Positions 7,308-63,518 of a stretch of 64,000 nucleotides of DNA are shown piece by piece. Position numbers and translations under genes: made by a program. The first letter of the stretch is position 1, and each line of letters opens with the position of its first letter. The stretch comes from an uncultured bacterium (lineage in GTDB: Bacteria > Zixibacteria > MSB-5A5 > JAABVY01 > JAHJOQ01), in the NCBI GenBank assembly GCA_965369655.1, contig CBDUQR010000003.1, forward strand, positions 1 through 64,000, written 5' to 3'. The notes beneath the pieces were generated by a model. The model saw only the letters and a list, made by a program, of their open reading frames with translations, had not been told where the DNA came from and did no database searches.

Positions 7308-10045
7308 TCATCCGGATCTGCCGTGACGTTCGATCATATCCAGATACTTCCGCGCCTCGTCCACATATCGCTGTGAGCCGGGCACCCTGTCCAGAATACT
7401 CTTCTCCTGCATATAATTGATGAAATCGTGAGCTTCGATCCTTGCCTGTTGTCTAAATCTGGTTTCAGTGGGATTCTCGCGCCAGACCCTGAAGGCGCAG
7501 CGCACCATGATCAACTTAGCTTTCCACCAGTATGGAACCGCCTGCACAGCCGGAGCAAGCCCGCGCGCTGTTTTGTAATAGTCTCTTGATGTGCGCACGT
7601 CGAGAGTGGTCGTGTCCCAGCCATACGCTATCACCATTGTCGTATAGGCTCGGGCGTTCATGTCGGTAATCGAAACATCGACGGAGGTTGACGTGTTGAT
7701 CGCATTCTTGAGCTTCTCCTGCCACTCAGGCGTCGATATGTTGACTCCACTCTCGCCAGCCGAGACAATGAAAATCTTCAACGCGTCATGATAGTTGGGG
7801 TCGGAAGAAGCGACCTTCTCGCATATTTGCCATGCCGCCGAGTTCCCGTTTTCGAACTCGCTCCTGCAATAGTCGAATGTGTATTCATCAGACTCACAGC
7901 TCCCCGCAGCCACCAGATTTTGCAGGGATGACTCGAGTTGATCGAGTTTGCTCCGAGCTTCTTCACAGTTTGACTGTTCGAGAAACTCATTGAGCCTCCC
8001 AACGCTATCCGAGAGTTTCTCCTCGCACAGTGGATACTGCGCAAGCTCGCTCAGGAAGTTGTCCGCATCACGCTTCACTTCAAGACACGGCGTTTCAGCC
8101 TTGCATTCGATCTCCGATAAATTGCTTATCGCATTCCTGGCATGCCATTCAGCTTGCGAACACTCGCCCTCCGTGAGATGGCGCACCGTCTTCTGTACGG
8201 ATTCATTCGCCTCCTTGAAATGCACGTTCTCCGAGAGCACCACACCGTATCGCTCGCATTCCTCTATGATCGACGCCAGCATTGACTGGGCTTCGTCGGC
8301 GAGTTCTCTTTCGCTAACGCATGGAATTCCCTTCGTGCAACCGGGGCGTTTCGCCGCCCATATCGATAGAAAGCGGCGGAGTCGTCGTTTTCACAGGCGG
8401 TCTCAGCCAGCTGGAAAAATGACCTGCCTTCTTCGCGACAATCCGCTTCGAGCCCGTCTCTCAGGCCGCGAAGTTCCTGCAGCTCTGTATCAGCCACACA
8501 TCTCCATCGATGCGGTTCCGAAAGAGCCGTCATTGCATCGAGATGCTGATTAGCGGCAATCAGATGAGATTCGGCCCTGCCGTAATCGGCCAAACAAAGA
8601 TTCTCCAGAGCCTGATCACTCTCCCCCTCGAACAGGTTCCACAGGGTGTCGAAGCCTCTCCAGTCCCCCTTGACGTCCTTGATCAATTGCGCGGAATCTC
8701 TCTGCTCACCAATCCTTTCGCAATAGGACTTAAGTGGCTACGAATCCGACTTAATCGCCTCGTATGCTGTTGATGCAGTCTGATAATCCTGTTTGTTTAT
8801 CAGTTGTTCCGCATCTGCGATGTCATTGTCGATCGAGCCGCGTTTCTCGGGGCCGACGCAATCCGATGATTTGAGATCGGGCCATGATTCGGCGATCTCC
8901 CCCTGAGCATTCTCTATTGAAGATTTGAATATCTCGGTACGTATGTAATCGTATAACAGCTTGCCGACCAAAATCATGGCTGCCATGAAAACCAGGATTG
9001 CGACCGTCAGGCCGATCTTCCGCCACGGCAATGCCGGGCCTCTGACCACATCAACCTCACCGCGCCGCTCGATGTAGTCTCTTATGATGATTGAAGAATC
9101 TTTCCCCTTGAGTGCGCGATCGATATCCTGCTTAAGCTCCTGAACAGAAGAGTACCGTTCGGTTTCGTTCCTGGTGAGGCAGCGCTGAATGATGTTCAGA
9201 GTTCTTGAACTCGCATCGGTCAATCTCAAGTCCCGAAGCAGACGTGGCAAATCGTGACGGATGTACTGCACGATCAGTCTGCGATTCAATTCAGATGGAA
9301 TCAGATCTTCGTTCTCGACGAGCTTAAAGAGCAACAAACCGCAACTGAATATGTCGGCGTCGAGACCGTAGTAGGTGCTGTCCTCCAGTACTCTCCGCGA
9401 ACTATAGTTGAGAGACGCCTTGACACCCGCCTCCTCCGCGAGAGGCGAAGCGGTGGCCGTAAGGAAATCGGTCACCTTGACCGTGTACTCGAAATTCCTC
9501 GGGTCCTGCCCGATCAGCACATTCTCTGGTTTGAGATTGAGATGCGGAATGCCGGAGAGAAGTCCCCCGTCCGGGCTCTTCAGATGAGCGCTGTGCATGG
9601 CCGACAGAGCGTCGGTGAGAAGACTCATCACGGCGAGCGCTACCGACTCATCCAGGCCTCTGCGTTTCTCCCTGCGACGAAATCTGCTGACAAACTGGTC
9701 GAGATTCCATGCCGGATGTTCTTCACTGCCGAAAAATGGCCTCTCGATCACACGTTCTTCACCCCGGACCGAAAACCACTTGCCATCGGGAGCTTGCAGG
9801 GGGCCGATAAGCGCGGGATGCCCAATTGATTCGGCTGCGCGTCCGGCCAGCGTCAGCGCGGCGGTATACCATCCGAAGAAAACCTGGTTCTGCACAAAGG
9901 CCGGTCGCAGTACTTTCAGGGCGCGACGCTCACCCGACTGTAAGTGTCTGCACTCCCTGAACTCTCCGATAGGGCTCGGTCTGACGACCTCATCGGCGTA
10001 CCGTTGGGAGCCTGGAGAAGTAGAATCCATTCCACTACCATTCAT
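7308..10045 (-). pseudogene. Membrane Ser/Thr (pseudo)kinase with Cys-rich helical extracytoplasmic domain, split into three ORFs (8738-10045, 8264-8686, 7308-8282)
   Basis: Kinase motifs ALKVL, HLNLKPEN, TDF and DIFSCG, then a TM helix. The frame continues past TAG at 8738-8740 into the 8686 ORF, and a 1-nt shift near 8370 joins the 7308 ORF. Confidence 0.65.
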
Positions 10046-53365: not shown

Positions 53366-53388
53366 GGTTCTACCTCCTTGTCATTGCA

Positions 53389-53561
53389 CCGTGGGCGGCA
53401 GACGTCCCTTAGGTTGTACCACAAGACGCGAAAAGCAGGTAGTCACACCTGCGAAAGCAAATAGTGTCATTCCCGCGAAGGCCCTTCGCTGTGCTCAGGA
53501 TATTACGGGAATCTATTGAATGCGTTATAGTTAAATGGACTCCCGCCTTCGCGGGAGTGAC
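53389..53561. repeat. Composite REP element (left copy)
   Basis: 53389-53426 is a direct repeat of 54373-54407. 53466-53561 (GTCATTCCCGCG...CGCGGGAGTGAC) is an inverted copy of 54440-54535. Confidence 0.9.
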
Positions 53562-53587
53562 ATAGGCCGCTTGACCTACATAGACCA

Positions 53588-54352
53588 TCACTGTTCCACC
53601 CCCATTGAAGATCGAACATGCACTGCGTCGGCGAATTCAGAAAGCATATCCCAAGACGATTCTTTCTCGAAGTGATTTCCGATCACGACAAACGATGCAC
53701 CTGAAATAACCTTGCTGTGAGCTTCCTCCGGACATTCGATACCGCCACCGACGATCACCGGGCGAGAGATGTACTCGGTCACTTCCTCGACCATCTCGTC
53801 GGGGACAGACTCTTTCGCGCCCGACCCAGCCTCGAGATAGATCAGCTTCATCCCGAGATATTCACCAGCAAGAGCATGGACCTTCGCTATGTCCGGTTTG
53901 TCTCGCGGGATCGGTAGTGTGTTCGACATGAATTCCACCGAAGTGCGATTTCCCGAATCGACGAGTATATACCCAGTCGGTATCGCCTCGATGCCGCACG
54001 CTTTGACAGCAGGCGCGCCCTTGACCTGCTCGGAAATCAAATAGTCGGGATTTCTCCCTGATATCAGCGATAAATACAGTATCGCGTCGGCTTCCGGCGC
54101 GATTTGTCTCCAGCTGCCGGGAAAGATAATCGCCGGAATTTCGGATACTCTCTTGATCGTTTTGATAATCTCGGATGCGTTCGCATCAGTCAGAAGTGAT
54201 GTTCCCACGAGAAAGGCATCGACACCCGCATCGACAGATTGCTCGACGAACGAAGGCAGACGATCCGCATTGACCCTATCCGGGTCGATCAATACGAGAA
54301 AACCAGCACCCTTCAGATTCCTGGTTTTCAACAGATGATCATAAACAATCAT
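53588..54352 (-). CDS. Geranylgeranylglyceryl/heptaprenylglyceryl phosphate synthase (group II-like)
   Basis: LIDPD, D..LVG.S, FPG, SLISGRNP.YLI, PTGYILVD.G, YLEAGSGA, VGGGI. Confidence 0.93.
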   Translation of the reverse strand: MIVYDHLLKTRNLKGAGFLVLIDPDRVNADRLPSFVEQSVDAGVDAFLVGTSLLTDANASEIIKTIKRVSEIPAIIFPGSWRQIAPEADAILYLSLISGRNPDYLISEQVKGAPAVKACGIEAIPTGYILVDSGNRTSVEFMSNTLPIPRDKPDIAKVHALAGEYLGMKLIYLEAGSGAKESVPDEMVEEVTEYISRPVIVGGGIECPEEAHSKVISGASFVVIGNHFEKESSWDMLSEFADAVHVRSSMGVEQ

Positions 54353-54372
54353 GTGACGTCCTCTTCTCTACG

Positions 54373-54535
54373 CCGTGGGCGGCAGACATCCCGAGGTTGT
54401 CCCAAGAGTGATGGTTGACTCAAGTGAGAAGCCAAGTCCGTCACTCCCGCGGAGGCGGGAGTCCATTTAACAAAAACGCATTCAATAGATTCCCGTAATA
54501 TCCTGAGCACAGCGAAGAGCCTTCGCGGGAATGAC
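54373..54535. repeat. Composite REP element (right copy)
   Basis: Partner of 53389-53561. Confidence 0.9.
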
Positions 54536-54558
54536 CGTATTTTCTCTTTCAAGCATAA

Positions 54559-61799: not shown

Positions 61800-61865
61800 G
61801 TTCATAGACTCTTGGGTTTTAGGAAAAGCATCTTACTTGTAAGCACCCATCCGTTCACCACTCTC

Positions 61866-63014
61866 TTAAGCTTCCTCGAGTACTTCGAAAATGTCCGGCG
61901 CCACGTATTTCTTGGGACGTACACTCTTTTGGGATTCTTGGAGAATGCCAACCTCAACAAGCTTGGAGACCGCTGTCTTGACAGTTGGATAACTAACATT
62001 CCAATGGTGGCTAAGCTCTGATATCGACACTACAGGATTAAGAAAAAGTTCTTCCATGGCTCGTATAGTATTTTTCGGCAACCTGCTTCCCTCGAGCTTT
62101 TCTAAATAGTCTAAACGTAACTTAATCAACTTGTCCGACAAGTCGGTGGCATGATCTGCTTGAGTAATGATTGCCCTGAGAAAAAACTCAATCCACTCTC
62201 GCCATCGGCCCTCCCTGCTGACCGAAAGGAGATGGCTGTAATACTCATTGCGATGCCTTTCAAAAAACGCACTCAAATAAAGCAATGGCTGTGAAAGGTA
62301 TCCCCGTGAGCATAGGAATAATGCAATCAACAGTCGTCCAATACGTCCATTCCCATCAATAAAAGGATGAATCGCTTCGAATTGATAATGCATGAGAGCG
62401 CATTTGATCAACGGGGATTCATCTGATACGTCGTTCATGTACTTCTCCCAGTCTGAGATAGCATCTTTCATCTCAGCAACTGGTGGAGGAACATACGTGG
62501 CATCTTTCAGCAAACAGCCGGGTGATCCAATCCAGTTCTGTGTGGTTCGGAATTCGCCGGGATATACTTCACAGCCCCGCACGCCTTGAGTCAGGATTTC
62601 GTGTATGTCCCGAATCAAGCGACCACATATTGGGAGCTCTTTGATTCCTTCCAACCCTGCTTCCATTGCCCGAATGTAGTTCCTGACCTCCTTCACATCA
62701 CTGTTTACTCCAGAGACTCGAGAAGTTGCCTCGTCGAAGTATACATCGCTCAGCGTAGCCTCAGTACCTTCAATGCGCGAACTGAGCACCGCTTCGATTC
62801 TTAAGAATGGTCCTATGAGAAGATATGGGTTGGGTAAATGCTTTCCCACACCTGAGAGCAATCCTAACTTACGATCCGCCTCAGAGAGAAGAGCGACAAG
62901 ATCGCTGTCATAGTCAAGCTTGGGAGGCAGGGGATTAGGAATGAATGCCCAATATTTAGCAGGTGTTTTTACAACTCTACCTGCTCCGCTTGCTTTGAAA
63001 TCCTCAGGGTTCAT
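61866..63014 (-). CDS. Fic-family AMPylase with N-terminal inhibitory helix and C-terminal winged HTH
   Basis: HPFIDGNGRIGR catalytic motif, SSRIEG inhibitory motif, C-terminal SISEL...NVSYPTV..AV.KLVEVGIL. Confidence 0.95.
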   Translation of the reverse strand: MNPEDFKASGAGRVVKTPAKYWAFIPNPLPPKLDYDSDLVALLSEADRKLGLLSGVGKHLPNPYLLIGPFLRIEAVLSSRIEGTEATLSDVYFDEATSRVSGVNSDVKEVRNYIRAMEAGLEGIKELPICGRLIRDIHEILTQGVRGCEVYPGEFRTTQNWIGSPGCLLKDATYVPPPVAEMKDAISDWEKYMNDVSDESPLIKCALMHYQFEAIHPFIDGNGRIGRLLIALFLCSRGYLSQPLLYLSAFFERHRNEYYSHLLSVSREGRWREWIEFFLRAIITQADHATDLSDKLIKLRLDYLEKLEGSRLPKNTIRAMEELFLNPVVSISELSHHWNVSYPTVKTAVSKLVEVGILQESQKSVRPKKYVAPDIFEVLEEA

Positions 63015-63098
63015 CGGTAATTCCCCTCATTCAGATCTGACTCTGTTTCAAGAGCACTCTCAGACCTGATTCTATTCAGCAAAATTTGAAATGCTGCC

Positions 63099-63352
63099 AC
63101 CTTTAATCCATATTAATTGGATTAAAGAAAAATACTATTACCTTTAATACAAACTAATTGGATTAAAGAAAAATGTCAAAACCTTTAATATGAATTGGTT
63201 GAATTAAAGAAAAACGCCGGAATCTTTAATTCAAATCAAACCAATTAAAGAAAAAAATGTAACCTTTTATTCAAGAAAATTAAATTAAAGAAAAGTGCTA
63301 AAACCTTTAATTCAAATCAACTGAATTAAAGGGAACTGCAATAACCTTTAAT
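63099..63352. repeat. Tandem array of six ~41-bp palindromic units plus one extra half-site
   Basis: Units start at 63099, 63140, 63181, 63222, 63262, 63303 and (partial) 63344. Each reads aCCTTTAAT-N13-ATTAAAGaaaa. Confidence 0.95.
63151..63179 (-). promoter_or_regulatory. Sigma70-like promoter for fic inside array unit 2
   Basis: Minus-strand TTGACA-N17-TAGTTT. Confidence 0.6.
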
Positions 63353-63518
63353 TGAGAAATAACCTGTTGTATTACTCAATAGACTGCCTAATATCATATA
63401 TAACAGACAATTACGACATCATCACTTGCATGCAGATTGCCAGGAATCACCCGCCAGCAACTGCAAATCCATAACCAACTGCACCACAATATGATATGGC
63501 CAGATTGTTCGCCGCTCT

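Follow-up and report, generated by a model that had tools for sequence, protein, structure and literature searches.

A phased array of 13 short half-sites precedes a fic gene in the window, the 64-kb stretch of DNA from an uncultured bacterium that was analyzed here. Its sequence, together with what has been reported for related proteins, makes it highly probable that the array is the auto-operator of the downstream protein, a Fic enzyme with a C-terminal wHTH domain, and that it represents an expanded form of a lattice found across the protein family. The 7-mers CTTTAAT and ATTAAAG alternate over positions 63101..63352 (no strand assigned) in steps of 20 and 21 bp. Half-sites of the CTTTAAT type start at 63101, 63142, 63183, 63224, 63264, 63305, and 63346, and ATTAAAG half-sites start at 63121, 63162, 63203, 63244, 63284, and 63325; successive 7-mers are separated by 13 and 14 nt, the inner spacer being constant at 13 nt. 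These coordinates bear out the six units, with periods of 41, 41, 41, 40, 41, and 41 bp and a fixed inner spacer, that a sequence-only reading of this DNA had described. The alternation every 20 to 21 bp holds as well, but the 7-mers are not all conserved, since the half-site at 63264 is CTTTTAT, with one mismatch; the remaining 12 of 13 are perfect, and the letters of the spacers have diverged. The array does lie upstream of the fic start, at a distance from the ATG at 63014 of 86 nt rather than the 85 nt previously given. Tandem Repeats Finder assigned it a period of 41, 6.2 copies, and 72% matches.

The array is indeed far more AT-rich than the DNA around it, with a GC content of 23% versus 52% for the window, the lowest value among 253-nt stretches sampled every 50 nt. 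Five exact units occur in the window and none in any of 100 shuffles. As the exact unit is found only at this locus in the 2.99-Mb genome, where 13 nt was the sole spacer found among those tested (5 to 25 nt), the array does not recur beside unrelated genes; the one other locus with any lattice is a degenerate version preceding a second SoFic paralogue. A genome-wide repeat was rejected on this ground, and an assembly artifact was rejected because the letters of the array are identical in contigs from three runs of one study (X1, X2, and X3, of which X1 may be the source). Guide arrays of the CRISPR or TIGR kind combine information-rich variable spacers with an adjacent effector gene. Such an array was likewise rejected, as the spacers here are only 13 to 14 nt long, AT-rich, and mutually related, and the neighbors are fic, pgsA, and a peptidase gene. 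Other repeats were noted along the way. The leader between the array and fic holds an imperfect repeat (63031-63069), made up of the palindrome TCAGATCTGA at 63031 and, 29 bp away, TCAGACCTGA at 63060, which could be another protein's site or an older operator. REP-like palindromic repeats are present at 53380-53590 and 54350-54550, where short ORFs read TPAKAG-like peptides, and another genome, G042, has a tandem set of REP-like repeats ahead of its fic lattice (L082, 1660-2045).

The gene that follows the array (61866..63014, minus strand) encodes P0001, a SoFic-type class II Fic protein of 382 amino acids with Fic_N, Fic, and C-terminal wHTH domains, as judged from Pfam, PADLOC, an AlphaFold2 model, and fold matches. 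P0001 matches PF13784, PF02661, and, weakly, a TrmB HTH. Against the PADLOC SoFic profile PDLC03963, this stand-alone gene scored 392.6 bits (E value of 5e-118, residues 20 to 380); against the NCBIfam ProtAdlyltaseSoFic family NF046030, it scored 188.6 bits, under the 550-bit cutoff, and is thus a relative of that family rather than an equivalog in it. The model has a pLDDT of 93.8, and its nearest folds are Shewanella SoFic (3zec/3eqx; TM score of 0.79) and Mycobacterium marinum Fic (TM score of 0.83). The catalytic motif HPFIDGNGRIGR (residues 216 to 227; 62334..62369, minus strand) fits HxFx(D/E)GNGRxxR. N-terminal to the Fic core on the same chain, SSRIEG (residues 78 to 83; 62766..62783, minus strand) fits the (S/T)xxxE(G/N) inhibitory helix of class II Fic proteins, and S78, S79, and E82 are invariant among 69 homologues. 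With both motifs intact, P0001 is a predicted class II Fic AMPylase. In the model, the wHTH comprises helices 314-322, 331-338, and 342-354 and a wing, the C-terminal wHTH being backed by the fold matches; residues 342 to 354 (YPTVKTAVSKLVE; 61953..61991, minus strand) form the predicted recognition helix, as assigned from the model and from the covariation described below.

The array and fic form an accessory insertion in a variable slot, at approximately 61800..63500 (no strand assigned), between a peptidase gene and pgsA. In a genome of the same family, G005, the two flanking genes are adjacent, with neither array nor fic between them, and in G001, from the same genus, a different gene lies upstream of pgsA. 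The gene upstream of the slot, which we take to resemble an M3 oligoendopeptidase, is truncated here, and its remaining portion gave no Pfam match. By its profile match and its position in an accessory slot, P0001 would be a SoFic-type defense gene with a putative anti-phage role. The second SoFic paralogue of the genome (L324; contig C72, ~7590-7680 of G000) is 43% identical to P0001, has TNPT in its recognition helix with Pro at the position of residue 343, and is preceded by the degenerate TTTAA lattice mentioned above. Because of this related lattice and the Pro at the equivalent place, the two proteins may share sites, and such cross-talk could favor a longer array. A third, longer Fic protein is encoded on contig C23 and has an AT-rich repeated upstream region.

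Phased lattices are common to most of the SoFic-type homologues that we examined; of 584 relatives detected in species genomes, the best 80 were used, and related genomes contributed 20 more. The sequence-only reading had proposed a search upstream of homologues for periodic inverted repeats, and this search found them: a score of at least 22 for three half-sites was reached by 74 of 93 homologues, compared to 6 of 558 shuffles and none of 89 downstream stretches. Of the 95 homologues with enough upstream DNA, 53 repeat some 6-mer exactly, at a distance of 41 bp, in the 200 nt preceding the start (shuffles, mean of 3.5 and maximum of 10; downstream, 2 of 89), and smaller peaks were seen at 40, 30/31, and 72 bp, all of them whole helical turns. 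The geometry spans distant clades. Its usual extent is short, with three to four half-sites in 85 of 98 loci and odd counts common; the 13 half-sites of our array are the most, the next longest chain having 7. The earlier argument that 13 half-sites exceed what autorepression needs does not extend to the family, and the length of the array is better regarded as a local expansion than as a family requirement, since three or four half-sites are the rule. Another route to extra sites is seen in L004, L007, L040, L046, and L068, where the DNA upstream of fic contains duplications of entire promoter-lattice blocks.

Searches that started from the DNA pattern alone also led to fic genes. Matches were obtained in 2 of 61 related genomes, both preceding a fic gene, and among at least 122 metagenome matches listed, 48 sit just upstream of fic and at least 8 more are, by eye, fic genes cut off at their starts; 71 of those listed have no Fic match nearby, some of them being such cut-off starts. 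Four bacterial-looking contigs (L096, L115, L122, and L150) carry an ATTAAAG lattice between non-Fic genes, in one case preceding a gene that resembles a specificity subunit of type I restriction; these contigs may reflect a SoFic regulon. Two further arrangements were observed at individual loci. A plasmid-borne Fic gene with SAPT in its helix (L460, 270-365) is accompanied by three TTAATTAA palindromes, a self-complementary version of the half-site, at steps of ~31 and 22 bp, and in L716 (1490-1760), an orphan lattice of the CGACAT class is situated ~200 nt ahead of a Fic gene whose own promoter carries a different repeat, GACTATA.

The letters of the half-site change together with the first residues of the recognition helix. 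The half-site TTATTAAAG goes with a helix 342-354 that opens with S/T-x-P-T, TTATTGCAG goes with xFNS, TTATTTC(C/A) goes with AYNT, and CTATTTTCG goes with AFTT. Covariation was counted over 97 loci, namely 67 of 93 selected by protein, which passed the score and a prior, and 30 selected by DNA; the half-site register was set with a TTATT prior, and the other 26 of the protein-selected loci were removed beforehand. Among 382 alignment columns, residue 343 was the best predictor of an AAA core, with Pro in 38 of 39 AAA-core loci versus 9 of 58 others. Fic proteins selected by DNA had Pro343 in 28 of 30 cases, versus 25 of 93 selected by protein. Close relatives switch jointly, as in L001 (SFPS with TTATTAAAG) versus L002-L009 (xFNS with TTATTGCAG) and in L306 versus L015; in trees from which the wHTH was left out, 7 to 11 changes of the trait are counted, and sister rows switch together. 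The predicted covariation was thus strong across loci but did not reach significance after correction for the tree: 98 rows yielded two independent pairs on well-supported (starred) branches, and 45 hand-picked rows yielded four pairs, 3.9 of them changing the same way (p = 0.125). It is likely, from these alignments, that the opening residues of the recognition helix determine the half-site, with Pro343 specifying ATTAAAG.

A candidate sigma-70 promoter, TTGACA-N17-TAGTTT, faces fic from within the array (63151..63179, minus strand). The promoter noted earlier is present, but its strength is doubtful: while the -35 hexamer (63179-63174) is perfect, the -10 hexamer (63156-63151) matches the consensus at 3 of 6 positions, and a consensus scan did not call it. 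TTGACA lies in the linker between units 2 and 3. A likely ribosome-binding site, GAGGGG (63023..63028, minus strand), can be read 8 nt before the ATG. In Yersinia pseudotuberculosis, a dimer of the Fic protein CccR is reported to repress its own promoter through an HTH, with recognition helices 70.2 Å apart (PMC9755527), which by arithmetic corresponds to about 20.6 bp, the step of our array. Dimeric SoFic is described as binding the 100 bp before its own gene and as modifying EF-Tu (10.64898/2026.07.09.737422). Because the CccR helix distance equals the array step and a SoFic dimer binds upstream DNA, each P0001 dimer would probably set its pair of recognition helices onto half-sites separated by two turns of the DNA, and neighboring dimers would tile the 41-bp period and cover the promoter; both dyads may be usable, given how common odd half-site counts are. 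Bound dimers would keep expression of a potentially toxic AMPylase low. By analogy with these relatives, P0001 would then act as a dimeric, DNA-binding repressor. That the Fic-wHTH protein itself binds the half-sites, as the sequence-only reading supposed, seems most likely in view of the lattice in homologues, its tracking of the helix, and the lack of copies beside unrelated genes in this genome. Against the auto-operator explanation stand the 19 of 93 homologues that fall under the score threshold, the weak promoter, a distance from array to start of 86 nt here versus a median of 20 nt, and the published CccR operator, which differs in geometry (10-bp arms and a 26-bp spacer), together with the nonsignificant tree-corrected covariation and the metagenome and viral matches that have no Fic nearby.

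The ATTAAAG lattice is also found, alone, in viruses. A scan of viral sequences returned 90 loci, 89 of them with no Fic match nearby, which collapse to 33 distinct sequences. When both spacers were left free (5 to 25), the 13/14 combination accounted for 20 of 120 viral loci among 441 possible combinations, and the flanking bases that the pattern left free agreed with the fic-operator profile in 79% of half-sites from viruses versus 11% of controls, the controls being drawn from more AT-rich DNA. Fic is encoded in only 1 of 50 lattice-bearing records searched whole (1 of 11 that were near complete), and the SoFic wHTH profile was found in 2 of the 50; no cyanophage was among 56 GenBank phage records matching P0001. 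Named carriers are S-CAM9, S-RIM12 isolates, ACG-2014b, and S-CBP1, whose lattice has two changed half-site bases. In podoviruses, the lattice is a discrete ~56-bp insertion before a head gene and is absent from S-CBP4, and in eight related podovirus copies, a small set, half-sites vary less than the 13-nt spacer at all but one position. After psbD, the length of the lattice varies in exact 41-bp steps, between a single half-site and at least five, and the stop codon of psbD itself is part of the first half-site in S-RIM12_RW28 and ACG-2014b. Further copies lie beside terminase, Hsp20, and HslV-like genes (8 of 14 neighbors have a family match), several are just before promoter-like sequence or head, terminase, or Hsp20 genes, and partial and decayed copies are present. 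The lattice is a minority trait, present at 14 of 63 loci in one set and 3 of 120 in another, both sets having been chosen through a neighboring gene. A run of three half-sites puts a TAA into each of the six reading frames, both in the window (63101-63148) and in every viral match, and the avoidance of open frames by viral lattices (0 of 79) was discarded as a test because the motif itself produces it.

The slot of the cyanopodoviruses, from a small gene to the head gene (L598-L661), accommodates further short palindromic modules, in combinations that can be exchanged, and is possibly a rack of different decoy sites. On the host side, a search for a cyanophage host with the exact cognate SoFic named no cyanobacterium among the 120 matches listed. 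Near-cognate genes do occur on plasmids, in Picosynechococcus PCC 7003 and Synechocystis PCC 6803, and the two cyanobacterial SoFic genes examined have not TATTAAAG but TATTAACG sites, which resemble the cyanophage copies without matching them exactly. A distant, canonical SoFic clade (L111, L727, L728, and L736) keeps the geometry with another half-site, CGACAT/ATGTCG in L111. A viral scan for the CGACAT class at nine spacings gave 65 loci, of which 41 were at 11/17 and 10 were at 12/17, with a fic gene near only 1; SoFic-clade promoters of hosts examined afterwards (L727, L728, and Martelella L736) have the same 11/17 spacing. Of nine SoFic-clade loci, two have a clear CGACA lattice, one has a partial lattice, and six have other sites or none, and 18 of the 41 viral matches at 11/17 lie in open frames of at least 100 codons. 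The CTGCAAT class gave two viral matches, both apparently by chance in coding DNA, with no orphan copies, and the TKGAAATA class gave none.

Two groups of explanations for the phage copies, neither of which conflicts with the auto-operator explanation, deserve weight. The copies could be relics of fic promoters, sites through which host SoFic controls phage promoters, or marks that SoFic senses, the host array being a plain autorepression site lengthened through tandem duplication; this is an account to which we give somewhat less than even chances. It fits the variable slots that copies share with other swappable palindromes, the positions before promoter-like sequence or before head, terminase, and Hsp20 genes, the partial and decayed copies, and the changes in copy number by exact 41-bp units, which slippage is expected to produce. 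However, 33 distinct contexts, with a second class at its exact spacing, are not what one would expect of relics, which do not readily explain the lower variation of half-sites than of spacer in the podovirus copies either. A mark sensed by SoFic would be expected to be lost rather than duplicated, and in the window array the spacers have diverged while 12 of 13 half-sites are perfect, which also counts against this account.

More tentatively, the lattice may act as a DNA antitoxin, an idea of the sequence-only reading that gains indirect support from the lone phage copies; this role would add to repression rather than replace it. Bound dimers would be nontoxic, loss of host DNA upon infection would free them, and operator copies in the phage would be decoys that recapture the enzyme. 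The number of distinct lattices without a fic gene nearby, the preference for 13/14 spacing, the agreement of flanking bases, the scarcity of Fic in the same viral records and of cyanophages among phages matching P0001, the way in which cyanophages gain or lose the lattice as a discrete piece and vary its copies by 41 bp, and the 11/17 peak of the second class (41 of 65), later seen in host SoFic promoters, all point in this direction. So do published data on relatives, as far as the available texts go: DNA shifts CbFic2 towards a dimer and towards deAMPylation (PMC10628234), and the C-terminal domain controls the toxicity of EcSofic (PMC12249575). A decoy that simply titrated an autorepressor would raise SoFic levels, harm the phage, and be selected against, so the model needs a hypothetical allosteric step in SoFic; retention and duplication of the copies fit better if bound SoFic is harmless. 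By contrast, SoFic is reported to require the dimer for both AMPylation and DNA binding, and the accessible text of that report describes no effect of DNA on catalysis (10.64898/2026.07.09.737422). The near-cognate sites of the two cyanobacterial SoFic genes, the minority status of the copies, the altered half-sites of S-CBP1, the two other classes without orphan copies, and the second-class matches within long frames weigh against decoys as well. The fullest version of this idea, in which SoFic is restrained by operator DNA through a helix-to-base code, unrelated lytic phages have repeatedly captured the lattice as a decoy, and the 13-site array is the host side of an arms race, is offered as a conjecture that may well prove wrong.

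It is improbable that another protein (a host regulator or a nucleoid or phage protein) binds the lattice, or that the lattice forms a mobile-element end, its link with fic being one of shared location. Most viral matches and over half of the at least 122 metagenome matches listed have no Fic nearby, and the array and fic do form an accessory insertion. In the viral record L264 (519-1848), a lattice lies directly upstream of a gene for a 421-amino-acid non-Fic protein with a C-terminal HTH (SYGTAKK) that weakly matches the SoFic wHTH profile (E value of 5e-5). Against this, half-sites vary from clade to clade along with the recognition helix of Fic, the genome has no other lattice save for the degenerate one at the second SoFic paralogue, the viral records rarely encode a wHTH that fits the profile, and the ORF list of the window has no recombinase or transposase beside the array. 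Least probable is the alternative, raised in the sequence-only reading, that the units form RNA hairpins in a leader transcript, as an attenuator or antitoxin RNA: the minus-strand array folds at -89.9 kcal/mol (z = -5.4), but alternating inverted-repeat arrays of any kind fold well, all eight Rfam matches to the array are far under the gathering threshold (best E value of 0.19), the half-site letters and helical phase (30/31, 40/41, and 72 bp) are conserved beyond pairing alone, as suits double-stranded DNA, and the lattice here, like those of several homologues judged by eye, encloses promoter-like hexamers, so that much of it would not be transcribed.

An auto-operator for P0001 has precedents, since autoregulation by Fic-wHTH proteins is already known. 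CccR (PDB 7xux) shares the combination of Fic and a C-terminal HTH and is described as binding, as a dimer, to inverted repeats near the -35 and -10 elements of its own promoter (PMC9755527); inverted repeats are present upstream of the P0001 gene, where the promoter is a weak candidate. The CccR operator, however, is a single site of 46 nt with 10-bp arms and a 26-bp spacer, as opposed to 13 half-sites at 20/21-bp steps, and CccR is a type VI secretion effector (PMC9755527), to which P0001 is only 24% identical (TM score of 0.55). No operator of that type is present in our array, where 7-mer spacers other than 13 and 14 are absent over the range of 5 to 25. Closer in architecture and fold (TM score of 0.79) are SoFic of Shewanella oneidensis (10.64898/2026.07.09.737422) and Sofic of E. 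coli (PMC12249575). SoFic is listed as a single-gene anti-phage system (10.1101/2022.05.11.491447), a grouping that P0001 shares by its PADLOC profile, although it is about 30% identical to SoFic and under the NF046030 equivalog cutoff; the available text on the Shewanella protein leaves the binding site unmapped and describes no lattice, recognition code, or phage copy (10.64898/2026.07.09.737422). CbFic2 of Coxiella burnetii (PDB 8cil) is a Fic-wHTH protein whose dimer state and (de)AMPylation are altered by DNA of at least 20 bp, but it is reported to have no specific DNA site and a eukaryotic target (PMC10628234), and P0001 is 22% identical to it. The antitoxins AbiEi and Rv2827c are wHTH defense proteins that repress their own promoters via several inverted repeats; these belong to two-gene type IV toxin-antitoxin systems, and, in the text available, their repeats apparently do not form a two-turn alternating lattice (PMC3985639, PMC7319586).

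Among open-license papers, we came across none that describes the phased lattice, its association with the helix, or SoFic operators borne by phages. The work yields a likely SoFic operator, a geometry common to distant clades, and a candidate one-residue specificity rule, and with named cyanophages that do and do not carry lone copies, and short oligonucleotides, the question of SoFic activation becomes testable. Should the copies be decoys, they would constitute a counterdefense made of noncoding DNA against one of the commonest anti-phage systems, invisible to gene-based searches; should they not be, the family-wide definition of the operator remains. Lone noncoding parts of host defense systems are carried by phages in other cases, such as the pseudo-ToxI of phage PhiTE and RNA anti-CRISPRs. 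Those parts act as RNA, whereas the part copied here would be a double-stranded DNA operator.
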